Positions 399 through 37,223 of a stretch of DNA of 37,568 nucleotides are shown here, one piece after another. The stretch covers positions 1-37,568 of the forward strand of contig CP120465.1 in assembly GCA_034226945.1 (NCBI GenBank). The letters run 5' to 3'. Positions within the stretch are counted from its first letter, which is position 1. Each line of letters starts with the position of its first letter. A program made the position numbers and the translations under genes. The notes beneath the pieces are model-generated. The model was given only the letters and a program-made list of their open reading frames with translations. It searched no databases and had not been told where the DNA came from. Source of the DNA: Picochlorum sp. SENEW3 (lineage: Eukaryota).

Positions 399-445
399 GA
401 TATCGTCTATCTATGTATCTCTTGTTCAAAAACACAACGTGTTGT

Positions 446-1566: not shown

Positions 1567-1723
1567 AAATAGTATGTATATTTTTATAGCTTTGATATAG
1601 ATGTGTGTAGTATACACAGAATATACATATCAAGTATATATACGATGTAAACATGTGTTGAATCGTCCATAGACTACAAGAACAGTATAGAACACTCTAG
1701 CGTGTTCCATACTTATGTACGTG

Positions 1724-2144: not shown

Positions 2145-2684
2145 TTATTTTCGTTTGCCTGTTTTACGGCGATAGTGTACACCATGGGCATAGTAAATAC
2201 CTTTAGATTGATAGGCTGACGGAGGTCGAAGATGGGTTAATGACGCTGCAATTTGTGTGATTTGGCCGCGATCAACACCAAACAGGACAATACATGTGGG
2301 ATCGGGGGTATACACACGAATACCTTGAGGAAGACGATACATAATATCATGACTGGTCCCCACTTTAAGATAGATATACTCATCACGAACTTGAGCTCGA
2401 TATCCAATACCTCGAAGATAGAGCATAACACTATGGCCACGAGTAATACCATGGATAATACTTGCAAGACGTCCACGCCATAAACCTACCAGGGCCGGTG
2501 TTGTGCCAATAATTGTTAGAGCATGTTCTGTATAGTGCCATGCAATACAACCATGGGGATCCATATGAGCAATGTCTAGGGTTAGAGACCCCAATGGCCC
2601 ATGAAATGTCCAACCACCATGATGACTTTGAAATGTCACGTGGGATGGTAAACATAGGGTATATGTTGATGTTGTACGTGCCAT
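2145..2684 (-). CDS. rpl6: ribosomal protein L6
   Basis: GPLGSL...LRGIGYRA...LRPPSAYQSKGIYY...RRKTGK uL6 motifs. Confidence 0.92.
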   Translation of the reverse strand: MARTTSTYTLCLPSHVTFQSHHGGWTFHGPLGSLTLDIAHMDPHGCIAWHYTEHALTIIGTTPALVGLWRGRLASIIHGITRGHSVMLYLRGIGYRAQVRDEYIYLKVGTSHDIMYRLPQGIRVYTPDPTCIVLFGVDRGQITQIAASLTHLRPPSAYQSKGIYYAHGVHYRRKTGKRK

Positions 2685-2691
2685 GGATATA

Positions 2692-3225
2692 TTACATTTT
2701 TACAGGAATGGCAAGTCCACTCCACAAACATGCTGCCAATGCGGGAGATGTGGGAGAACATACAAAACTCATATCAAGGCCTTGAACACCAGGAATATAT
2801 TCCCATAAATATTCCACTTCAGGGTACATAAAAACATCACGACATCCAATGCTCCAATGACCGAGAGTATTCATGGATGTCATAGAGAGACCTTGGTAAT
2901 CTCGATGTCGAGTCCAAGCCATATGGACTACTTTATGCATAAAATTCCACATTATGTCATGACGTAATGTAACACGGCATCCTAAAACTTGGTCTTGGCG
3001 AAGTCGAAATCCTGCCATTGCAGTACGAGCTCGGGTCCATTGAGGACATTGACCAGTAATAGATGTCACCAGGGCACCACTCGCTACAACATGGTCTACT
3101 TGAGTTCCTGGTGTTGTATGCACATGAATACTTTGTGGGTAGGGTGTTGTATGAGGGGTATATGTATATCCTTTATACATCATATCCTGTGCCACAATAG
3201 TTGTATAATATGTTGCCGATGTCAT
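2692..3225 (-). CDS. rpl5: ribosomal protein L5
   Basis: ITGQCPQWTRAR..AGFRLR...GCRVTLR...YPEVEY...GLD uL5 motifs. Confidence 0.92.
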   Translation of the reverse strand: MTSATYYTTIVAQDMMYKGYTYTPHTTPYPQSIHVHTTPGTQVDHVVASGALVTSITGQCPQWTRARTAMAGFRLRQDQVLGCRVTLRHDIMWNFMHKVVHMAWTRHRDYQGLSMTSMNTLGHWSIGCRDVFMYPEVEYLWEYIPGVQGLDMSFVCSPTSPALAACLWSGLAIPVKM

Positions 3226-3317
3226 CCTTGATGTTTTTGTCCAACAATATGAGAGATGCTATGTCGCTCTATATGAGATGCACACCAGATCTATAGTCCA
3301 GTCTCTCCACATATCAT

Positions 3318-6417: not shown

Positions 6418-6777
6418 GGCGTAGCACGTCTATGTTTAAGATAGAGTCCACCTCTGTATGAAAATACAGGGAGTATGTGAGCGAAATTCCTTGTCGGGTA
6501 AGTTCCGACGTGCATGAATGGTGTCACGACTGCCCCGCTGTCTCCAATATACACTCAGTGAAATTGAATTCTCCGTGCAGATGCGGAGTCCCCAAAAGTA
6601 GACGGTAAGACCCTATGCACCTTTACTGCAATGTATTATTGATACTGGATACACGTTGTGTAGCATAGGTGGGAGCCTTATGGCACTCTTGAAATACCAC
6701 CCTGCGTGTCTCTTGTATCTCACCTACATATCTGTAGGAAACGTGATACATGGGTAGTTTAACTGGGGCGGTTGCTT

Positions 6778-7857
6778 TATACGGAGCCCACGTATGGTAA
6801 CATACGTGTGATACATTCGGCTATATGCTGGAACGTCTGTTCATCCATACTAGAAAAACCCCACAAGACGCGCGTTACATTTTCTAGATATGAGATGGTG
6901 ATACATACTCAAGAAAGAGTCTAAAGAATCTCTACAACTCCGCCCGAAACATATATGTCTCCTATGGAGCAGACAGTAGTAGAGTGCAGATAATCAGCAG
7001 GAAACCAAAGTACACTTTGGTGTATGAGTAGGATCCTCAACGACTACACGCCGAACATCCTATAGAACATCATGACATATCTCTATGTGTATCCACGAGA
7101 GAGCGTGCATGCATGTTTTTAGGATGATGATATAGTCTGAACTACCAGGCGACTGGTAGAGTCTATGGTGGTGTGATACAACACACTGTAGACCTTATGG
7201 TGGGTACACATTGTTGAGTGTGTTTCGAAAACGTCTATAGAAACAATATCCCTATCACAATATCAACAAGATGTTCTTTATGGTTCTCTTTTAGGAGATG
7301 GACATCTTGAAGCATATCATGGTCGGACATCAACGTCCTACCGATATATTCTTGTTCAATCCACGCGAAAATCAATCTATATACGTTGGATGCAGAGTGT
7401 GTTTGCACCCTATATCACGCATGCATTGTATGTACGATATTGTCCCACACAACAAGGATACACAAGTACATATCGACTTTGTACACGACGTCATATTGAT
7501 TTTCAACCCGTTGGGCATCTCTGGTATCCCCATGGCACAAAATGTGTTCCACGTACAGCGCATATATGGTTAACGCCTCGTGCATTGGCCGTATGGTATA
7601 TGGAAGATGGAAGTATAAAATCCAAGATATCCAAAGGAGTGTATCTGAATACACATGGATTTACACGAGATGATAGTGAGTATCTGTGTGATGTATTGAA
7701 CACACGCTATAGAATTCAATGTTGGCCAGTTCCAGATCGACATCAGTATCGTATCTATGTCTCTGGACATAGTTATACGTGTCTATCTCGTTTGATTGTA
7801 CCGTATTTCACATCAGATATGATGTATAAATGGCCACCACCACGAGTAACATCATTG
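6778..7857 (+). mobile_element. group I intron at LSU position about 2262, 1080 nt
   Basis: Interrupts GGGGCGGTTGCTT^CCTAAAGAGTAACGG; P1 GCTT/GAGC with a U.G pair; terminal G; AATCAGCAGG, TCAACGACTACA and GATGATATAGTCTG core elements. Confidence 0.9.
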
Positions 7858-7869
7858 CCTAAAGAGTAA
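7192..7869 (+). CDS. intron-encoded two-motif LAGLIDADG endonuclease (I-SceI-like); start codon unclear, stop lies in the downstream rRNA exon
   Basis: Frame open from 7192; motif 1 DVLYGSLLGDGHL (about 7270) lies upstream of the first ATG (7390); motif 2 LTPRALAVWYMEDGS. Confidence 0.85.
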   Translation, partial: TLWWVHIVECVSKTSIETISLSQYQQDVLYGSLLGDGHLEAYHGRTSTSYRYILVQSTRKSIYIRWMQSVFAPYITHALYVRYCPTQQGYTSTYRLCTRRHIDFQPVGHLWYPHGTKCVPRTAHIWLTPRALAVWYMEDGSIKSKISKGVYLNTHGFTRDDSEYLCDVLNTRYRIQCWPVPDRHQYRIYVSGHSYTCLSRLIVPYFTSDMMYKWPPPRVTSLPKE

Positions 7870-8099
7870 CGGAAGCGTGCAAAGGTAAGTTCACATGGGA
7901 CGGAAACCCATGGTAGAGCGTAATGGTATATGCTTGCCTGACTGCAAGACTTACAGGTCGAGCAGAGACGAAAGTCGGCCATAGTGACCCGGGAGTACCA
8001 CGTGGATGGGCTCTCGAGTAACGGATCAAAGGTACGCTAGGGATAACAGGCTGATGACTCCCAAGAGCTCCTATCGACGGAGTCGTTTGGCACCTCGAT

Positions 8100-9114
8100 A
8101 AGCGATAGTCGAGGATAAAGTGGGTGAATTGTCAAGAATCTCTCCGTCCATACTGGTCTATTCAAAACCAGCGTGTGGTTGTGACCACACGACTATGATG
8201 GACTGAGACAACTTGCAGCGAAGTTTTATAGGACTGTATCCCATGTCATACATACATGATGATAATCTATAAAAAACGTTCAACGACTAGAGGGTGAGTT
8301 CAGTCAACAATACTCCCTCCACGAGCGCCCACCAAAGATATCGTACCTATGACATATACATCACGAGCATGGATTCGACATGGATATCATCTTAATAGTC
8401 GGTATTGGCAACAATGGAAATTACAGCGTCCACCACTTGCACCATATCTTCAACACTGTCTGTTGGGGATATGTTTAGGAGATGCGCATGTATTTCGCTC
8501 AAGCCGACATGCAGCGTTGAAATTCCAGCAAGGCGCTCATCAGTATGAATTTATTCAATATCTTTTTATACTATTTCAACAATGGAGATGGATGCCTACT
8601 CTTGGTATTCGATATACATCTACAGGTGATATCAAGAGTTACTGGTTTAAAACCTTTTCACATCCCGAATTTACACCCTACTACACTGCTCTCTATCCAG
8701 TAGGACATACATCACGACAGATTCCCACGATGTGTTTACACCGTCTTGGGCTGTCACCTATTGTGCTTGCCTATTGGATTATATGCGATGGTGGTTTACA
8801 TCGGGATGGACGAACACTCACGCTTCATACACAATGTTGGACATATACACAGCAACAGGAGTTGGTATCCTTGTTTTATACATTTTATGGATGGCACGTC
8901 CAGTGTCGACGTCATAAAAATAAGTATTGGGTCTTAGAAATCCCAGCTCCATATAGTGATGCGTGTGCTCGGTATATTAGTCCGTGGATACTACCATCTT
9001 TTGCCTATAAAGTACCACGAGAGACATCTACACGATATCTTTGATGACATAGTCTGAACTTCAAGGTGACTTGAAGAAGTATAGGATAAAGAGCCTATAC
9101 GATAACATATATTG
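8100..9114 (+). mobile_element. group I intron at LSU position about 2500, 1015 nt
   Basis: Interrupts GGCACCTCGAT^GTCGACTCATC; P1 CCTCGAT/GTCGAGG; terminal G; TTCAACGACTAGA and GATGACATAGTCTG core elements. Confidence 0.94.
8349..9044 (+). CDS. intron-encoded two-motif LAGLIDADG endonuclease/maturase
   Basis: LLGICLGDAH and SPIVLAYWIICDGG motifs, YWFKTFSHP, TLHTQ, ILPSFAYK; intact 231-aa ORF. Confidence 0.9.
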   Translation: MTYTSRAWIRHGYHLNSRYWQQWKLQRPPLAPYLQHCLLGICLGDAHVFRSSRHAALKFQQGAHQYEFIQYLFILFQQWRWMPTLGIRYTSTGDIKSYWFKTFSHPEFTPYYTALYPVGHTSRQIPTMCLHRLGLSPIVLAYWIICDGGLHRDGRTLTLHTQCWTYTQQQELVSLFYTFYGWHVQCRRHKNKYWVLEIPAPYSDACARYISPWILPSFAYKVPRETSTRYL

Positions 9115-9506: not shown

Positions 9507-9703
9507 TAGATGTACTGTATAGAGATATAGTATACAATCTATTGATATAGAGAACCATGATATATCTTGTTTCAAGTAGTCTCTAGGTGTATGGTATTTT
9601 GTTTCATACAAAAATATCGTACACATACAGACTACATACAACACCATAGAATGTGTCTAGACGTTGTACATATGTATAGATGTAAAAAAAATTCGTGTTT
9701 GAT

Positions 9704-10608
9704 ATGGGACAAAAAGCACATCCAATTGCGCTTCGTCAAGCTAGTAAGTATCGACATCAAGATACTGTATGGTATAGTCGACGATATCGTCAACAATTGG
9801 CCGCTCGTGATATGGCATATATGGAGTATATGCAGACGTTACGTGCTCAACAACAGTTGCCAACACCACGACTTGCTATTCAACATGGTCCAACTGGAAC
9901 ATATATGTATGGTTTTATCTGTACACCTCATACAAATCGTGAACACATGGCAACATTATGTTATACGCCATATTCATCACCGATGTCAGTATCCAATCTA
10001 CCTATCTCTATGTGGGGGTATCGAGACGTATGTATGCCTTGCCACACATCAGGATATATGCCACCGATGTTGGGTGTGTCTGAGAATACGCTACAACAAT
10101 GGACTGCATCGCGTGTTGTAGGTTTGTATCCTATGGAACATCTTTTAGCACATCTTGTGGACTCTTCTCTATCATTGCCATGTCATACATCAGAATTTCG
10201 TGTATCTCAATGGATTGTTGATCATATGGGAAATCATATGGAACGTAGTTTTCAAGCACCTGTGCATTGGATGCCCATTGGTGTGACACACATGTGGCAT
10301 GATGCAGGATTTGTTGCTGATGAAATTGTCTGGTTTTTAGAACGTCGTGTGGGATTTCGTCGTATTAAACAAGCACTTGCTCGACTGGTGGAATCAATGC
10401 CTTCTATTCAAGGTGTTCGTGTAGCTGTATCAGGTCGTGTTGGTGGTCGTTCTAAAAATCTCAGCGAGCTCGATGTGATGTCTGGAAATATGGAGCAACA
10501 CCACTTCATGTATTTTCACAACGTATTGACTATGCCCAACGAATTGCTCGAACACATCTTGGAACGTCTGGTGTTTCCGTGTGGCTGGTGTCGCGTGAAT
10601 CCCGATAA
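9704..10608 (+). CDS. rps3: ribosomal protein S3; apparent 1-nt frameshift in the A5 run at 10454-10458
   Basis: MGQKAHPIALR start; IQGVRVAVSGRVGG; adding one A gives SKKSQRAR...YGATPLHVFSQRIDYA...GVSVW, stop at 10608. Confidence 0.92.
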
Positions 10609-10625
10609 AAAGTGTTTTTCTATCT

Positions 10626-11045
10626 ATGTTACAACCAAAACGTACACGATATCGTAAACATCATAAACCACCACATGTGAGTCCAACGAATAATACATCA
10701 CATTTATGTTTTGGTGAATATGGGATTCAAGCATGTACATCCGGTCGAGTGACCGCTCGTCATTTAGAAGCTATTCGACGTGTGTGTACTCGTGTATGTC
10801 GTCGTCAAGGAAAAATTTGGATTCGTGTATTTCCAGACTGGTCTGTCACACGTAAATCTGCAGAATCTCGTATGGGAAAAGGTAAAGGTGCACCAAGTTT
10901 TTGGGTGTGTCCTGTACCTGCCGGAACACTGGTAGTAGAACTCAGTGGTATGCCTCAAGAAACAGCACGCCGTGCTGCCTATCTTGCGGGATTTAAACTT
11001 CCTATGACAACGCGATTTGTCACACGGCATGGTATTGCTGGATAA
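10626..11045 (+). CDS. rpl16: ribosomal protein L16
   Basis: MLQPKRTRYRKHHK...KIWIRVFPD...RMGKGKG. Confidence 0.97.
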   Translation: MLQPKRTRYRKHHKPPHVSPTNNTSHLCFGEYGIQACTSGRVTARHLEAIRRVCTRVCRRQGKIWIRVFPDWSVTRKSAESRMGKGKGAPSFWVCPVPAGTLVVELSGMPQETARRAAYLAGFKLPMTTRFVTRHGIAG

Positions 11046-11063
11046 AAAAATGTAGTATATACT

Positions 11064-11291: not shown

Positions 11292-11437
11292 ATATCTATA
11301 GTCATAGAGACACTCTATAGAATAGATGATTTTTTATCGAATCATAGTACATCACTACGTGTCATACGCATATACAATGATGTCATAGAGATATATTTAT
11401 GAATCTGGGTATGATATGAAAAAAAAATATAGATGCC

Positions 11438-11959: not shown

Positions 11960-11979
11960 AGATTATATTGTTTATATAT

Positions 11980-13452
11980 AAAATAATAGTCAATCCAACC
12001 GCAGGTTCCCCTACGGTTACCTTGTTACGACTTCACTCCAGTTGATCTATGCGGTCTGGGACCCATGATGTACAGTGTATGATGTGTGTATTGTTCACAA
12101 TACACGTGGCATACACGGTATGTATAGGTACTTCCACTACATACATCTCCCAGAGTGTGACGGGCGGGGAGTACAAGGCTCAGGTACATATTCACCGTGG
12201 CGTGCTGATCCACGATTACTAGTGATTCCGGCTTGATGGTGTCGAGTTGCAGACACCAATCCGTACTGAGGTGTGATTTGGCGATTGGCTCCACCTTTCG
12301 GTCTTGCTACGTATTGTTCACACCATTGTAACACGTGTGTAGCCCAGTTCATAAGGGTCATGAGGACTTGACGTCATCCCATCCTGCCTCCAGTCTCTCA
12401 CTGGCGGTCCACATTGACATACGTGTGTATAGTGCAATGTGGCAGGGTTTCGCTCGTTCGGGAAATTAATCCAACATGTCACCACACGAGCTGACGACAG
12501 CCATGCAACACCTGTGATCCATAGGGATCATGTCAAGAACTGGTAAGGTTATGCGCGTAGTATCGAATTAAACCACATGTTCCACCACTTGTGTGAGCCC
12601 CCGTCTATTCCTTTGAGTTTTAATCTTGCGATCGTACTCCTCAGGCGGACCATTTACCGCGTTAGCTAACCCACATCCCTGAATCTCAGGAATATAGGGA
12701 ATGGTCATCGTTGACAGCGTGGACTACAGGGGTATCTAATCCCTTTTGCTCCCCACGCTTTCGCACCTCAATGTCAGGTACGTGCAAGAGCACTGCCTTC
12801 GCGTTTGGTGTTCCTTCCCAGATCAACACATTCTACCGCTTCCTGGGAAATTCCATGCTCCTTTCACGTCCTCAAGTGATATGATGTCTGTATCTATCGA
12901 CAAAACCTATGGTTTGAATACATACCACACCATATCACCACCTACGTGCGCTTTACGCCCAATCATTTTGAATAACGCTTGCCCCTCTCGTATTACCGCG
13001 GCTGCTGGCACGAAATTAGCCGGGACTTGGACACTTTACACGGTCAATGTCTATATAAAGTGCATAGGGTTTACAACGTATGTCGCCGTCATCCCCAAAG
13101 CGATATCACTGGATCAGGCTTGCGCCCATTGTCCAAGATTCCCCACTGCTGCCGCTCGTAAGCGTCTGGGCCGTGTCTCAGTCCCAGTGTGGCCGATCAT
13201 TCTCTCAAACCGGCTAGGCATCTCAGGCTTGGTGCGCCATTACCACACCAACAACCTAATACCCCGCAAGCTCATCCATAGCCGATATATATCTTGTGAT
13301 AGACACAGCAACATTTCGTTACAAGCTATGGGTAGATTCTCACGTGTTACGCACCCGTGCGCCACTCATATACATGTGTATATGCGTTCGACTTGCATGT
13401 GTTAGGTGTATCGCGAGCGTTCATTCTGAGCCAGGATCAAACTCATGTCATA
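11980..13452 (-). rRNA. rns: small subunit rRNA; ends approximate
   Basis: Reverse complement has GAGTTTGATCCTGGCTCAG, GTGCCAGCAGCCGCGGTAATAC, ATTAGATACCCC and AAGTCGTAACAAGGTAACC. Confidence 0.97.
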
Positions 13453-13647: not shown

Positions 13648-15249
<1,602 letters not shown>

Positions 15250-15376: not shown

Positions 15377-16845
15377 CTAGAGACCATGATAAATGACATG
15401 AGCCACACTGCTATGCATGACGGAAAGATATGATTCGGGATAGAGCCCCATCCAAAGTACTACTAGGATGAGTGGTACAAAACACCAAAATTCACGTCGA
15501 TTGATATCAGCTGTAGTATTCATAAAATGGGGTTTTGGAACACCATATAAAACACGATTACACAACCATAGTCCATACCCAGCGCCTAAAATCATACCAC
15601 TTGCTGCAAGAGATGCTGCCCAAGTTGATGTTTGAAAAATACCAGCAAACACGAGAAATTCTCCTACAAAACTACTTGTTCCTGGAAGACTAATATTAGC
15701 CATGGTAAAAAAGACTAAAAAAAGAGCAAAAAGTGGCATAGTACGAGCCATACCTGCGTAGTATCGTAATACACGAGTTTTATGACGATCATACAGAACA
15801 CCAACACATAAAAAGAGTGCAGGTGATACCACACCATGGCTTAACATTAATACAATAGCACCTTCAATTCCCTGTGTATTGAGACTAAAAAGACCAAGTG
15901 TGACAAAATTCATATGGGCAACACTTGAATACGCAATGATTTTTTTTAAATCAACTTGTCGAAGTGTTGTTAAACTTGTATAGACAATAGCAATCACACT
16001 CATGGTGAGCATGAGTGGTGTAAAATAGAGTGTGGCATAAGGAAACATGGGAATTGAAAAACGTAAAAAACCATAGGTTCCTAATTTTAAAAGAACACCT
16101 GCTAACACCAGACTTCCAGCAGTAGGTGCCTCTACGTGAGCTTCTGGAAGCCAAATATGTACTGGAACCATAGGAACCTTAACAGCAAAACTGGCAAACA
16201 TAGCAACCCATAGAAGAAGTTCACGAGATTCACTCCATGTGGTTGTGTAGAGCATATCAATATCCGTACTTCCACATTGAAACGCCATGAGTAATACACC
16301 TAAGAGCATGAGCACGGAACCTAGAAGCGTATAGAGAAAGAATTGATATGCAGCACGAATTTTACGTTCACGTGCACCCCACACCCCAATAACCAAAAAC
16401 ATGGGCAAGAGCACACTTTCGAAAAACACATAGAAAAGCAGTAAGTCGAGAGCTGAAAATACAGCCATCACCATGCTTTCCATCAGTAAAAATGCAATAC
16501 AGTATTCACGAACACGATGTTGCACACTATGCCAACTTGCTAATATACAAATAGGCATTAAAAATGTGGTTAAGAGCACAAAAACAGTGAAATACCATCG
16601 AGACCAAATCGAAAGTGTGTTGTATCCAACATACTGCTAGCACCACCAAAGGAGACGTCAAACACATATTGATAAAGCGGTGTTGATGCATCAAATTCAA
16701 CCCATAAAACCAGTGACAGTACAAATGTCAACACCATAGTCCAAAGGGTCCACATTTTATAGGTGTTGGACATACCACGTGGAAGTATTGGTAACACCAT
16801 GGCACCAACAATAGGCATACACAGGACAAGGGCAAGAGGGGACAT
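15377..16845 (-). CDS. nad4: NADH dehydrogenase subunit 4; apparent 1-nt frameshift at 16580-16584
   Basis: GLDGISLF in ORF 16570..16845 joins HIWLPEAHVEAP and AYSSVAHM in ORF 15377..16579 when one T is added. Confidence 0.96.
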
Positions 16846-16860
16846 GAGATATATCTATTT

Positions 16861-18853
16861 TTAGAGCACCGGTGAAACCAGTCCAGACACCAGAAGAACA
16901 CCTACAAGACGAGCATCCATAGAAAGAGATGACATACTTGCCAGTGCAACACAGACCGTAACACCAAACAGCATCACAAGTGCATAGTGATACATATAAC
17001 CAGACTGTAGTTGACGAAGACGTTGTGCAAGCGCAAGACTACACTGCGAAAGACCTTGTGGCCCCATCATTTCTAAAAGACCACGATCGAGTGCACGAAA
17101 ACTCGTGCGATATCCCCATACCATTGCCGGACGACCCACATATGCATTATAGACCACATCTACAAACCAACGACGATTACAAAAACGCATCACCGAACGA
17201 TACCAGGGATGTGTGTGTAGAGACTCTACCCATGCCGGAGAAACCATACATGTGATATACGCTACACCAAGACCTGCCAATGTACCAAAGACTGGAACAA
17301 GACGAATCCATTGATCGAGATATTCTGATTCCACCATAGAGTCATGATATGGTGATGTATAGACAGCATTGCCCCAAAAATCTGTTCCAAGACCAATAAA
17401 CATATCTCGAGAAAGATATCCCACAAAAATACTTCCTACAGCTAAGATATATAAAGGTACAGCCATAGCAACTGGCGCTTCATGAACATGAGACATGGAT
17501 ACACGACTCGCACGTGGTGGTACAAGAAATACTAAAAAAGAAGTCGAAAACTATAGTAACTTGTTAGAAATACCACCAATGTAGTAATACACCATGCAAA
17601 ATTTCCCATGGATGTATATTGTCCACCAGAAATTTCTAGGATAACATCTTTACTATAAAAACCTGTAAGGTATGGCCATCCAACAAGTGCTAATGTACCA
17701 ATCAATGTCATAGCATAGGATAAGGGGACTAGTCGTACAAGACCTCCCATACGTCGCATATCCTGTTCATCTCCGAGTGCATGAATAACACTTCCAGCAC
17801 TTAAAAGAGAAGTGCTTTAAAAAAAGCATGATTGGCTAAATGATAGACACCAAGGGCATATTGAGACATACCACATGCTACCATCATATATCCCAATTGA
17901 CTGGCTGTAGAATAGGCAATAACACGCTTCATATCATGTTGAAATGCTCCGGTTGTTGCCGCAAAAAGACATGTCATAGCACCAATAATCGTAACACATG
18001 CAAGTGCTGTTGGAGATGATTCATAGAGTGGACTGAGACGAGCCAATAAAAAAACACCAGCTGTAACCATGGTGGCAGCGTGAATTAACGCAGACACGGG
18101 TGTTGGACCCTCCATAGCATCAGGAAGCCATGTATGAAGTCCCATTTGAGCAGATTTTCCCATAGCACCAATAAATAAAAGGATACAGGCTAAATCATTC
18201 CAATTCACTGGAATACCCCACATCATAAAGGTATGTTGATAACAGTGGGGTGCACATGCAAATACAGTAGCAAAATCCACACTTTGATACTGCATATAGA
18301 CAGCAAAGGTTCCCAGTGCTAGACCAACATCACCGATACGATTCATGACCATGGCCTTAATACTGGCCTTATTGGCAGCAACGCGTGTAAACCAAAAATT
18401 AATCAAAAGATAACTGGCAAGACCAACACCCTCCCAACCAAAAAAAAGTTGTACAAAATTATCAGCTGTTACCAACATCACCATGAAAAAGGTAAAAATA
18501 GATAAATAACTCATAAATCGTGGAATATGAGGATCTGCACTCATATATCCTGTGGAATAAAGATGTACTAAACTACTGACACCGGTAATAACAACCAACA
18601 TCACACATGTCAGTGTATCAAAATAAAAACCCCATCGAGCCTGAAATAAATCGGACACAAACCATGGACTCAGAGCAATACTACATGGACTTGCCTGAAA
18701 TCCCACTTCATACAAGGCCATCATAGAGAGACATGCGGTGATTGCCACACTTCCTGTGGTAATCAGTGCAGCTCCACGATGTCCAAGATATCGACCACCA
18801 AATCCTGCAGTCAAACTTGCCATAAGTGGCAGGGTGATAATCAGCAGATACAT
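16861..18853 (-). CDS. nad5: NADH dehydrogenase subunit 5; apparent 1-nt frameshifts at 17803-17806 and 17534-17539
   Basis: [45 protein letters not shown]; three ORF pieces join with one added T each. Confidence 0.96.
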
Positions 18854-19634: not shown

Positions 19635-19654
19635 GTATATTACGTTTTCCAATG

Positions 19655-20113: not shown

Positions 20114-20170
20114 AAATATCTCGATTTTATCAGTCTATATCCATATATATTTCTATAGATATAGAATCTC

Positions 20171-20452: not shown

Positions 20453-20533
20453 AATATTGTTGATGCTAGTCGTGATATATATATGTATATGGTATCGATA
20501 TGCTATGTATATCAAAAAATATCCCAATTCTGT

Positions 20534-21313: not shown

Positions 21314-21399
21314 ACCGGTTGTATCCAAGAATTGTATTGTGTCTACTCTTTCAAACCTCAAGGTATACAAAGAGATAGTGATCTAAAAATAGACAATGT

Positions 21400-22190: not shown

Positions 22191-22221
22191 TACCTAGTAC
22201 CTATAAAACAACGTGTGTGAT

Positions 22222-23803: not shown

Positions 23804-23862
23804 GAGAGTGCTCCTGTTTTTCTTTCTATAGACTTTGAGCTATGTTTCTCTTTCTAGGTTTG

Positions 23863-26022: not shown

Positions 26023-26120
26023 AGATACGTATATACGATACCTATACAACACTATAGGTCTATGTATACAGTGTGTCACGTTGGAATATATACCCATATT
26101 AGATACAATACTATGGTAGT

Positions 26121-26260
26121 AGTCACGAGGTCGTGGTGTTAGTCACGAGGTCGTGGTGTTAGTCACGAGGTCGTGGTGTTAGTCACGAGGTCGTGGTGTT
26201 AGTCACGAGGTCGTGGTGTTAGTCACGAGGTCGTGGTGTTAGTCACGAGGTCGTGGTGTT
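26121..26260. repeat. 20-bp tandem repeat, 7 perfect copies (AGTCACGAGGTCGTGGTGTT), duplicating the rps12 3' end
   Basis: Seven identical head-to-tail units with no spacers. Confidence 0.97.
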
Positions 26261-26619: not shown

Positions 26620-26693
26620 GTACAACACAATATTTTTGGGACATGACATCTATAGATGTCTCTATCAAAGTTTGCATCAATAGATGTTGATGT

Positions 26694-27653: not shown

Positions 27654-27822
27654 TGTAGAGACGTGCGTTTTTTATCGAATGTACATAGAGACATGTCAGA
27701 CAGAGGCGTCTATAGAGACATGTGTATGTCTCTCATATAGAGTAGACCTTGAGATACACTAGGTATTGTCTATGTCTCTCGTGTATACTCTCTATATCTA
27801 TTAGACCGACACTCTATTTATT

Positions 27823-28533
27823 ATGTCTTCTCTTGTACTCTATATACAGGAACTATACTATCGTGTGTGCTACGTATGTATAGCTCTGGCGCTGGCTTGT
27901 TGTACTGCTTGGATCTATCGTTACACCTATCTACACGCATATATTGCACCGGTCACGACCACGTTATATGTGTTGGATGTTGGAGAAGACATTCAAACGG
28001 GTGTCTCTATAAGTCTCTATCTTGGTTGTGTTTGGAGTGTAGGATATATCTACTATGTCTATACATGTTATACGGCTCCGGGACGATATGCGTATGAACA
28101 CACCTCTTTGATGTGGTCTCGTATCTGTATGTGGTTGTATATGTATGGCGTGTATATCTGGGGCGTATGGTATGCATGGCCGGAAGTGTACCGCGTGTTT
28201 CTTGGCATGCCAATAGGTGTGTCAGATATATGGGGTCTTTGTGTGGATACCATGCCGCGTGTTCGTTCGTTGGTGGCCTGGAGTATATGGGTACCTGTAG
28301 GGTGTGTATGTATATCCCTAGTTCCTATGTATGGATACGTGTATGTGGATAGTGTATGGATAACATACTATCGACGTACATGGTATCTCTGTAGCGCACT
28401 TTGTGTAAGTGCTCTATGCCCACCACATCCATGGTTTCAAATGTGTGTGTCCTTGATTTTCTGGCTTCTCTATGAATTCACATTAGTATGTGTGTGTATT
28501 CGCCAATGTGTGTCTAAAACATCTACAACATGA
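27823..28533 (+). CDS. tatC: twin-arginine translocase subunit TatC (mttB), divergent
   Basis: YIQELYYRV, APGRYAYE, YRRTWY, SALCPP...LLYEF follow the TatC motif order; ATGA overlap with nad6. Confidence 0.8.
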   Translation: MSSLVLYIQELYYRVCYVCIALALACCTAWIYRYTYLHAYIAPVTTTLYVLDVGEDIQTGVSISLYLGCVWSVGYIYYVYTCYTAPGRYAYEHTSLMWSRICMWLYMYGVYIWGVWYAWPEVYRVFLGMPIGVSDIWGLCVDTMPRVRSLVAWSIWVPVGCVCISLVPMYGYVYVDSVWITYYRRTWYLCSALCVSALCPPHPWFQMCVSLIFWLLYEFTLVCVCIRQCVSKTSTT

Positions 28534-29132
28534 ATACGCTTTTTTATGTTTTTGCGAGTTTAATGTTAGCCAGTGGTGTTATGGTGATTCAATCTCGTAA
28601 TCCTGTATATAGTGTACTTTTTTTAATTTTAGTCTTTTTTCATGGTGCAGCACTTTTATTACTTTTAGGGCTGGATTTTTTTGCCATGACATTTCTTGTG
28701 GTCTATGTGGGTGCTATTGCAGTGCTCTTTTTGTTTGTTGTCATGATGTTAGACATTAATATGGCAGAACTTCAAGAGCGTCGACTACGCTATTTACCCG
28801 TAGGTGGTGTACTTGGTCTGCTGTTTATTCTTGAGGGTCTTGTTATTGTGGATGTTGATCTTGTACCACTTCTCTATACGCAAAGTATGGATACATCCGT
28901 ATATTGGACAAATTGGACATATACTTTGGCACAAGTCAGCAATATGCATACTATGGGTCGACTGCTCTATACCTATTATGGTGTGTATTTTTTAGTGGCC
29001 AGTCTTATTTTATTAGTTGCCATGGTGGGGGCTATTGTACTCACACAACAACGCCGTCGTGGTGCTCGACGTCAACACGTGTATATTCAAAATACGCGAG
29101 ATTTTGCTCGTACGATTCGTAAAGTCTCGTAA
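28530..29132 (+). CDS. nad6: NADH dehydrogenase subunit 6
   Basis: [40 protein letters not shown]. Confidence 0.98.
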
Positions 29133-29153
29133 AAACATCCCAATACATTTTCT

Positions 29154-29455
29154 ATGGATATTGTCAATTATATTGCTGTTGCTCTAGCTCTTTTTTATTG
29201 GGTTTATGGGGTATTTTTATGAACCGCAAGAATATTCTCGTGATGTTAATGAGCATTGAACTGATGTTGTTGGCGGTGAATATGAACTTTTTAGTGTTTT
29301 CAGTGTACTTAGACGATGTTGTTGGTCAAATGTTTGCACTTTTTGTTCTTACAGTTGCCGCAGCTGAAAGTGCTATTGGTCTGGCTCTTTTAGTGGTGTA
29401 CTATCGTATTCGTGGCACCATTCAAGTGGAGTATATTAATCTGATTCGGGGGTAA
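29154..29455 (+). CDS. nad4L: NADH dehydrogenase subunit 4L; apparent 1-nt frameshift at T6 29191-29196
   Basis: [32 protein letters not shown] 29154 joins the frame with one added T. Confidence 0.96.
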
Positions 29456-29801: not shown

Positions 29802-29844
29802 ACCTCCCGGAGGCGAGGCATGATATGGATAACAAAAAAAATAA

Positions 29845-31377: not shown

Positions 31378-31411
31378 ACTCTATTGTATGTAAAAGATAT
31401 GTCCCAAGTGT

Positions 31412-32508
31412 ATGAGTGGTATTCTTGTAACAAGTGTGCTTAAAATTTTGGGTATTACAGTACCCTTACTCCTGGGTGTTGCGTTTTTAGTGCTTGCAGA
31501 ACGAAAAGTTTTAGGAGCCATGCAACGCCGTAAAGGACCGAATGTGGTTGGTTTTGGCGTGTTACAACCCATTGCTGATGGTGTGAAACTCATGGTCAAA
31601 GAACCTGTATTACCAAGCAATGCCAACACTGTACTCTTTGTGGGAGCTCCTATTTTAACGTTTCTTCTAAGTCAAGTAGCCTGGGCTGCTATTCCCTTTA
31701 GCCCAGGAGCTGTTTTAGCAGATCTCGATGTGGGTGTGCTCTACTTATTTGCTATTTCCAGTCTTGGGGTGTATGGAATTATTATTGCTGGATGGTCAAG
31801 TAATTCAAAATATGCATTTTTAGGAAGTCTTCGATCTGCCGCACAAATGGTGAGTTACGAAGTATCTATTGGTTTAATTTTAATTACAGTTCTTTTATGT
31901 GCTGGAACCTTAAACCTATCAACAATTGTACAAGCGCAACAGTATGTATGGTATGTTGTACCTCTATACCCCTTATTACTTTTGTTTTTATTTCATGTCT
32001 TGCGGAAACAAATCGTGCACCCTTTGATCTTCCAGAAGCTGAAGCAGAATTAGTAGCAGGATATAATGTGGAATATTCAAGTATGGGATTTGCTCTTTTT
32101 TTCTTAGGAGAATACGCCAATATGATGGTGATGAGTAGTCTATGCGTGATTTTTTTTCTTGGAGGTTGGCTTCCACCACTTGATATTGCCCTATTCTATT
32201 GGTTCCCACCAAGTTTTTGGTTTGCTCTGAAAGTTGCTGGTGTGTTATTTCTGTATATTTGGGTACGAGCATGTTATCCTCGATATCGATATGATCAACT
32301 TATGGGACTTGGTTGGAAAGTATTTCTTCCATTATCCCTTGCATGGGTTGTATTTGTTGCAGGAGTCCTACTGAGTTTTGACTGGCTTCCAAGCAGTGCA
32401 GCCATTTTTATTAAATATATAAACAATATCACCTTCTGGGTGTTGTGTATTTGGTGCAAGGGTTTCCCATGGACTTCCATATTCAAAATATCGAAATTCT
32501 TGGGCTAA
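31412..32508 (+). CDS. nad1: NADH dehydrogenase subunit 1; apparent 1-nt frameshift at T5 31985-31989; 3' end uncertain (homology ends near 32391)
   Basis: [60 protein letters not shown]. Confidence 0.96.
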
Positions 32509-33009: not shown

Positions 33010-33051
33010 ACAAATAGAGAGTTTTTATATCATACAAGGTTGTCATACAAA

Positions 33052-34749: not shown

Positions 34750-35035
34750 ATGGACTATACGATGTTTTTTGATTTGATGCTCGAGTATGGCCAGTATCGT
34801 ATGACCATAGATCAAACCGTGACAAATGGCTGAAATACGTCTCTCTATTCATGTCTATCATATAGAGAAACACAGGACATTCTCACCCAGAAATGCTCCA
34901 TATTTCTCGCCTCTCTTGTCTATTGTATGGTGGTGGTGTATCCACAAGAATCCACCCAAAACACATAGAGATCAATCCCGCTGTGTCAACTCATGTGTAT
35001 CACGCATTGGACATATGAGTATATTGCAGGGTATA

Positions 35036-35107: not shown

Positions 35108-35135
35108 ACCCTTGAGAAAACATATCAATCTCTTT

Positions 35136-36498: not shown

Positions 36499-36518
36499 AT
36501 GAAATACAAAATATATAT

Positions 36519-37092: not shown

Positions 37093-37223
37093 CAACACCT
37101 CTCTTTGAGATGATATATATATTTCGTGATACTCTCTCTAGTATGCATACAACACATGATACGTGCTCTAGCATATGTATATCGACAAGAGAGTGTCTGC
37201 TGGATTTTTAAAAACACCTTTTT

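Follow-up and report, generated by a model that had tools for sequence, protein, structure and literature searches.

Most protein-coding genes of the mitochondrial genome described here, hereafter the window (the whole stretch of DNA analysed, 37,568 bases), are preceded by a short run of adenines, the A-tract, at a fixed distance, about 13 bases, upstream of the start codon. This tract is real, linked to the start codon and under purifying selection, and it lies in an unusually unstructured region. We assign a probability of about 0.5 to the reading that it is a conserved translation-start element whose reader is an A-preferring protein at the exit site of the mitoribosome, or a low-specificity contact at that site, and not a specific helix with an anti-Shine-Dalgarno motif (anti-SD). 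The window contains rnl, rns, 25 tRNA genes and 33 protein genes, a set typical of a green-algal mitochondrion, and has a GC content of 42%. Because rps2 spans both ends of the window, we regard it as a complete circular green-algal mitochondrial genome.

The A-tract and its linkage to start codons

A tract was scored wherever a run of at least four A ended 7-18 nucleotides (nt) before an ATG. By this measure 28 of the 33 curated starts had a tract (29 of 33 if atp1 begins at its second ATG), and 24 of 33 retained one when the first in-frame ATG was taken blindly. Among control ATGs it was present at 23 of 756 internal sense-strand sites and at 116 of 2009 sites on both strands (61/1028 plus 55/981), giving Fisher p values of 1.5e-32 for the curated starts and 1.2e-25 for the naive ones. 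An earlier note on this DNA, which had proposed that the tract pairs with a rewritten anti-SD in the 3' tail of the small-subunit (SSU) rRNA, had arrived by hand at 29 of 33 genes, a median distance of 12 nt and 22 genes within 10-14 nt; this count proved exact, with the second ATG of atp1 used. No tract was found at the starts of atp9, nad2, rps7 and tatC, nor at any of the four unassigned open reading frames (ORFs). The tracts are listed below, with the distance given as the number of nt between the last A and the ATG.

37210..37214, plus strand: A5 of rps2, 9 nt before ATG 37224
428..432, plus strand: A5 of rps14, 13 nt before ATG 446
1581..1585, minus strand: A5 of rps11, 14 nt before ATG 1566
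2148..2151, minus strand: A4 of rps13, 12 nt before ATG 2135, within the end of rpl6
2697..2701, minus strand: A5 of rpl6, 12 nt before ATG 2684, inside the rpl5 coding sequence
3234..3238, minus strand: A5 of rpl5, 8 nt before ATG 3225
9684..9691, plus strand: A8 of rps3, 12 nt before ATG 9704
10607..10611, plus strand: A5 of rpl16, 14 nt before ATG 10626, inside the rps3 coding sequence
11044..11050, plus strand: A7 of rps19, 13 nt before ATG 11064, overlapping the rpl16 stop codon
11419..11427, plus strand: A9 of rpl10 (A8 in one other run), 10 nt before ATG 11438
15234..15238, minus strand: A5 of cox1, 11 nt before ATG 15222
16858..16862, minus strand: A5 of nad4, 12 nt before ATG 16845, overlapping the nad5 stop codon
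18868..18872, minus strand: A5 of nad5, 14 nt before ATG 18853
19645..19648, minus strand: A4 of atp4, 10 nt before ATG 19634
20125..20128, minus strand: A4 of atp8, 11 nt before ATG 20113
20514..20519, plus strand: A6 of cox2, 14 nt before ATG 20534
21385..21389, plus strand: A5 of cox3 (A6 in 4/4 other runs), 10 nt before ATG 21400
22205..22208, plus strand: A4 of nad7, 13 nt before ATG 22222
23817..23821, minus strand: A5 of rps10, 13 nt before ATG 23803
26633..26637, minus strand: A5 of rps12, 13 nt before ATG 26619, with the N-terminus MPTR as in the relative described below
27668..27673, minus strand: A6 of rps4, 14 nt before ATG 27653
28516..28519, plus strand: A4 of nad6, 10 nt before ATG 28530, inside the tatC coding sequence
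29131..29135, plus strand: A5 of nad4L, 18 nt before ATG 29154
29834..29841, plus strand: A8 of atp1, 12 nt before the second ATG (29854) and 3 nt before the first (29845)
31392..31395, plus strand: A4 of nad1, 16 nt before ATG 31412
33022..33026, minus strand: A5 of nad9, 12 nt before ATG 33009
34765..34770, minus strand: A6 of atp6, 15 nt before ATG 34749
35117..35120, plus strand: A4 of cob, 15 nt before ATG 35136, in a leader that begins 28 nt after tRNA-Asn
36508..36511, plus strand: A4 of nad3, 7 nt before ATG 36519, in a leader that begins 20 nt after tRNA-Asp

Homopolymer slips of 1 nt in the assembly make these tract lengths uncertain by one nt either way: at 16579, 17533, 17802, 21384 and 21690 the contigs from three or four other runs have one extra base, and the rpl10 slip lies at 11419. 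Such slips explain why nad4, nad5 (two breaks) and cox3 have broken frames in the window. The frames of nad1 (31412-32508) and nad4L (29154-29455) are likewise split, both outside the stretch that was compared with other runs.

When the leaders were aligned at the ATG, A occupied each of positions -17 to -14 in 23 of the 33 leaders and fell to 10 of 33 at -10, and AAAAA was the top enriched 5-mer between -30 and -1 (21/33 leaders versus 1.8 expected). The base 5' of the tract was T in 16 of 28 cases; the base 3' of it was C or T in 13 cases each and G in 2, and the one after that was A in 19. At -1 a T was found in 22 of the 33 genes, and at -3 an A in only 7 of the 33 leaders, so that A is not enriched there. 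The start regions also proved poorly structured, with a minimum free energy of the segment from -30 to +20 of -4.23 kcal/mol at the 33 starts compared with -8.57 kcal/mol at 744 internal ATGs (p 6e-14), and with a GC fraction of 0.33 compared with 0.42.

The gap between the upstream same-strand feature and the ATG varied between -32 and several hundred nt or more; the tract, in contrast, kept its 7-18 nt from the ATG throughout. The tracts of rpl16, nad6, rpl6 and rps13 lie within the upstream coding sequence, those of nad4 and rps19 on the upstream stop codon, and those of nad3, cob, atp1, rps14, nad5 and atp8 20-56 nt after a tRNA. Since the tract is thus tied to the downstream ATG and not to the end of the upstream gene, we consider it a start-site element that appears to serve each start; a promoter, an end signal of the upstream gene or a cleavage site is disfavoured. 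In rps12, rps14, cox2 and nad4L the tract precedes an in-frame ATG other than the first one in the listed ORF, a choice that for rps12 is backed by alignment with the relative. As an aid to annotation, the tract identifies the true ATG of at least five genes in this genome.

A comparison was provided by a 33,151-base circular algal mitochondrial contig (locus L124, G001:C338; hereafter REL1) found in an assembly labelled as a marine bacterial metagenome-assembled genome. With its terminal overlap inside rns, it represents the complete circle of an algal mitochondrial genome. Identity to the window is 94% for the cox1 protein and 86-89% for rns. Starts in the relatives, which form a small and uneven sample, were set by homology and by the nearest ATG. 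In ATG-aligned leaders, REL1 and the window had the same base in only 5-16 of 32 genes at most positions, which are saturated, with the exception of -16 to -14 (21-22/32 genes) and -1 (23/32). A tract was present at 21 of the 32 REL1 starts compared with 128 of 1329 ATGs, and A peaked there at -14 (26/32). In L058 and L033, two algal loci more distant than REL1 and represented by 15 starts each, the leaders were A-rich from about -23 to -10. The T at -1 was also found in 23 of the 32 REL1 genes, and this position is conserved between REL1 and the window; a T at -1 fits the idea of extended codon-anticodon pairing known from plastids.

The rns tail and its pairing with the leaders

The features of rns, the mitochondrial SSU rRNA gene, that bear on pairing are the following.

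11983..13452, minus strand: rns, Rfam RF00177, 1213.5 bits, model positions 1-1533 of 1533
11960..11996, minus strand: tail at the rns 3' end plus the spacer that reaches the rpl10 stop, reading GGAUUGAC and then the U/A-rich UAUUAUUUUAUAUAUAAACAAUAUAAUCU, from the sequence and the alignment of relatives
11980..11983, minus strand: U4 run, the proposed anti-SD, of which 11983 alone falls within the bacterial model

On the minus strand, positions 11996..11980 read GGAUUGACUAUUAUUUU, followed by AUAUAUAAAC. Past helix 45 the rns RNA continues as GGAUUGACUAUUAU, where the bacterial SSU model stops, at 11983, and from there UUUAUAUAUAAACAAUAUAAUCU follows as far as the stop codon of the converging rpl10. 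Because the model ends at 11983, the first U alone of the U4 run is inside RF00177, and 11980-11982 lie beyond it. The sequence after helix 45 has no CCUCC anti-SD, as the earlier note had read it. The U4 run is no assembly slip by comparison with another run, whose contig over 11000-12513 has a single gap, at 11419.

Alignment of the tails of the window, REL1 and two metagenome loci, L052 and L056, showed that about 28 nt past GGAUUGAC are conserved, with invariant U.UUAUU, A.A, UA and CAAUA. This conservation is not due to the antisense rpl10, since in L052 the rpl10 stop is 1181 nt away. What varies is the U-run, which reads UUUU, UUUG, UUGG and AUUU in the four tails, between invariant flanking columns. 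Folding of the rns 5' leader against the 3' trailer (duplexfold) gave long looped structures without an interpretable reading. A CAAUA(U/A)AA block about 20 nt downstream of GGAUUGAC (window 11960-11979) is invariant in the four rns trailers; it may serve for processing or belong to an extended mature tail. One contig of run X1 agrees with the window as far as 11979 and is unrelated to it from there on; this break at 11979/11980 falls precisely where the U-run borders and may represent a variant arrangement or another strain.

Metagenomes scanned with the tail pattern gave at least 112 matches; among the matches listed, most were bacterial or plastid tails with CCUCC, and only a few were algal loci with several genes. 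Pfam scans of 62 further small ORFs in the relatives added few usable starts (L056 rpl10; L052 rps19 was confirmed). In viral contigs the 18-base tail pattern gave 7 chance matches in phage genes and a longer pattern none. The same kind of scan of genome contigs returned one algal relative and 7 land-plant mitochondrial contigs, the latter being host-plant mitochondrial contigs inside Frankia and Burkholderia assemblies.

If the tract paired with the U-run, as the earlier note had proposed, an energy minimum was to be expected at -12 to -17. Duplex energies, computed with three tail lengths against 10-nt windows of the leaders, revealed none: the leaders there bound the tail more weakly than internal controls did. 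The tail ending in UUUU gave means of -0.85 to -1.23 kcal/mol with the 10-nt windows starting at -21 to -18, compared with -1.71 kcal/mol at 749 internal ATGs, and a U8 probe gained on average only -0.35 kcal/mol at the tract at best. Matched by Watson-Crick pairing to positions -26 to -7, the distal tail gave a mean longest match of 5.42 nt, compared with 5.15 +- 0.52 nt for shuffled tails; 329 of 1000 shuffles equalled it. The REL1 tail gave 5.27 nt on the leaders of the window, and the REL1 leaders matched the window tail (5.59) better than their own (5.16). Positional complementarity in the best register was 0.457 versus 0.446 +- 0.022, with 659 of 2000 shuffles equalling it, and in REL1 1307 of 2000 shuffled tails did as well. 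The extended matches to the tail that had been pointed out at rps13, atp1, cox3, nad4 and nad5 are present in the sequence but exceed nothing that shuffled tails give; since those do as well, such matches are what any U/A-rich tail gives.

In the relatives the tract persists where the aligned U-run has decayed to UUUG, UUGG or AUUU, the outcome that the earlier note had set against its own proposal, although all tails are still U-rich. The longest U-run of REL1 is 5 nt closer to helix 45, yet its A peak shifts by at most 1 nt, and tracts of 5-9 A are longer than the U4 run. Of the earlier interpretation, the start-linked initiation element is upheld by position, controls and conservation, and the specific A:U pairing with a rewritten anti-SD is disfavoured by the energies, the shuffles and the decay of the U-run.

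What the tract may do and how it may be read

The element that we favour would be made up of an A run at about -17 to -13, then a spacer rich in U and, at -1, a U. Through it the mRNA would dock on the exit side of the mitoribosomal small subunit, and the true AUG of each cistron would thereby be marked, even where cistrons overlap or share a polycistronic unit. The reader of the element would be an A-preferring component of the exit site, either a mitoribosomal RNA-binding protein of the type proposed for the plant motif or a low-specificity contact with the U-rich tail. By descent, the element would probably be the A-rich half of an ancestral AAAGGA-type box, this clade having lost the G of the box along with the C of the tail. 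The plant motif in question, AxAAA, is rich in A or purines and was found about 19 nt upstream in 17 of the 33 mitochondrial genes of Arabidopsis; the pentatricopeptide repeat (PPR) protein mS83 has been proposed as its reader (Waltz et al., bioRxiv 10.1101/777342). According to a review, mTRAN1 binds A/U-rich motifs in 5' untranslated regions, which serve as ribosome-binding sites (PMC11389837).

Several points weigh against this assignment of the reader. One-to-one alignment of the tail to the end of the bacterial model, combined with the aligned spacing of 5 nt that holds for the bacterial Shine-Dalgarno (SD) sequence, places the U-run opposite -14 to -17, which is the observed peak, so that the geometry predicted for pairing does fit. 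About 28 nt of the rns extension are conserved independently of rpl10, so the extension probably has a function and may persist in the mature rRNA. G is depleted after the tract (2/28, compared with 26% after A-runs genome-wide; binomial 0.013). Box and tail may, moreover, change together. In metagenome loci among the matches listed whose tails, GACUCCUUUUU, GACUCUUUUU and GACUCCUUUC, have a C directly before the U-run, AAAG or AAGG occurs at -20 to -4 in 9 of 11 starts (L026 4/6, L050 2/2, L052 2/2, L059 1/1; background 12-20% of ATGs), a sample of four short loci that are perhaps not independent lineages and in which the choice of the A-run was partly a matter of judgement. In genomes with A before the U-run these boxes occur in 9 of 95 starts (window 3/33, REL1 2/32, L058 3/15, L033 1/15), and in L056 in 2 of 4. 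The L026 tail was more complementary to its own leader matrix than 995 of 1000 shuffles, on the basis of six genes and of shuffles that mostly break the U-run. As for a protein, no reader is known for this alga and the plant model is disputed: a 2025 cauliflower structure puts mS83/mTRAN at the foot of the SSU, away from the mRNA exit, where mS77 and mS86 are found (PMC12672651). In a plant pre-initiation complex from a 2025 preprint, mS37, mS86, bS21m and the 18S rRNA 3' end hold the mRNA at the exit in place (PMC12776268).

A rival reading is a minimal form of SD-like pairing, in which the tract and the U-run of an extended rns 3' tail would form a short A:U helix in the SD cleft, an eroded version of AAAGGA:CUCCUUU. 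Its geometry fits that of an SD helix, the tail is kept for about 28 nt beyond GGAUUGAC in a way that rpl10 does not explain, the L026 tail outdoes nearly all of its shuffles, and the AAAG/AAGG boxes found with C-U(n) tails, together with the depletion of G, form the pattern expected if AAAGGA:CUCCUUU had lost its G:C part in this clade. Jakobid AAAGGA boxes, located 7-15 nt upstream, pair with CUCCUUU (PMC3590771), and the contact of the plant 18S 3' end with the mRNA at the exit (PMC12776268) offers a second precedent. Against the helix stand the missing energy minimum with the marginal gain of the U8 probe, a specificity of the tail that does not rise above composition in either the window or REL1, the U-run being the least conserved part of the tail, the REL1 A peak that does not follow the shifted U-run, tracts longer than U4, and a covariation drawn from 11 starts in four short loci with a partly judged choice of A-run. 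We therefore regard such a helix as possible but doubtful. With similar reserve, we tentatively suggest that green-algal mitochondria keep a graded erosion series of SD and anti-SD, from a CUCCUUU(UU) tail with AAAG/AAGG boxes in relatives to a U/A-only tail with a pure A-tract in this clade, the A:U helix still being formed; if so, plant mitochondria would likewise have in their A-rich motif a remnant of SD and not a purely protein-read signal.

It is improbable that an A-rich, GC-poor leader merely keeps the start region unfolded without any specific reader, the alternative that the earlier note had named. The start regions do fold weakly (-4.2 vs -8.6 kcal/mol), and shuffled start windows fold as weakly; but the signal is A and not A/U, it is sharply placed (23/33 at -17 to -14 and 10/33 at -10), AAAAA is the top enriched 5-mer, and exactly the tract positions are conserved while the remaining leader is free to change. 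This preference for A at fixed positions argues for a specific reader rather than a passive element. It is very improbable that the tract is a promoter or signals termination or polyadenylation for the upstream gene: the motif is AT-rich like many promoters of phage-type polymerases, but it has 29 copies at a fixed distance from ATGs, some of them inside overlapping genes and tight gene clusters, and its distance to the upstream gene end is highly variable. There is a slightly smaller chance than for the passive leader that the tract is a signal for processing or stability of the mRNA 5' end, at or near which an endonuclease would cut to leave a short leader. The distance between tract and AUG is about the length of mRNA that the small subunit covers upstream of the P site, and in the chlorophycean Pediastrum the atp6 ends fall in a genomic A9 stretch (PMC8003010). 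A cut at the tract would, however, remove the end of the upstream coding sequence at rpl16, nad6, rpl6 and rps13, and the tract also occurs just after tRNAs, where excision already sets the 5' end.

Known elements and genes without a tract

The closest known element is the A-rich 5' motif of plant mitochondria, together with the A/U-rich motifs that mTRAN reportedly binds (Tran et al. 2023). In both cases an A-rich box stands at a fixed place upstream of mitochondrial AUGs, the first A of the window box being at about -17 to -18, both lineages belong to the Viridiplantae, and both rns tails begin with GGAUUGA and have no CCUCC. The box of the window differs in being a pure A run at 85-88% of genes, compared with 17 of 33 in Arabidopsis, and in lying in short leaders and even inside upstream genes.

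With bacterial SD/anti-SD pairing the element shares a box upstream of the start, on the exit side, with one copy per cistron of polycistronic units; it differs in that the window has no CCUCC core and no energy minimum, and in that the proposed anti-SD is not conserved among relatives. SD-poor Bacteroidetes have A-rich leaders. Initiation independent of SD through a local absence of structure was reportedly described by Scharff et al. in 2011 (PMC3121790). Like structure-free starts of this kind, the start regions of the window are far less structured than internal sites; unlike them, they carry a signal that is specific for base and position, and A is not enriched at -3.

The SD-like motifs of jakobids (Burger et al. 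2013, PMC3590771) are alike in that boxes stand before most genes at a fixed distance and face a pyrimidine-rich rns tail, and relatives of the present alga retain CUCCUUU(UU) tails and AAAG/AAGG boxes. In contrast to the jakobid motifs, the tail of the window has no C and its box no G, the box lies further upstream (last A at about -13, compared with 7-15 nt for the whole jakobid motif), and the jakobid pairing-energy criterion of below -8.5 kcal is out of reach for A:U pairs. Mitochondrial mRNAs of chlorophyceans are mostly leaderless (PMC8003010). In the literature searched, beyond which a report may exist, no account was found of the tract in trebouxiophyte or other green-algal mitochondria. 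The kind of element is known from the plant A-rich motif and the jakobid boxes; a pure A run at 85-88% of genes combined with a U/A-only tail is new in the literature searched.

How plant and algal mitoribosomes find the start codon is unsettled, with an A-rich motif proposed, a reader protein disputed and no anti-SD. The compact genome of the window shows the A-rich signal in its cleanest form, as a pure run at a fixed distance that is conserved amid freely changing leaders. Together with the relatives that have CUCCUUU tails and AAAG/AAGG boxes, it forms a natural series for asking whether the plant-type motif descends from an SD box, and the same series bears on whether RNA pairing still contributes.

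A few ORFs lacking the tract had features of their own. The rnl gene contains two group I introns (window 6750-7159 and 8074-9076), and no A-tract was seen at the usual distance from the LAGLIDADG_2 ORFs of the rnl introns (7390-7869 and 8349-9044). Directly before the rps7 ORF, at 26098-26160 on the minus strand, there are three tandem copies of a 20-base CACCACGACCTCGTGACTAA-like unit, and the true start of this gene is uncertain. The leader of tatC holds a 17-base block, atctattagaccgacac, in both the window (27790-27822) and REL1, and tatC seems to have a start region of its own.

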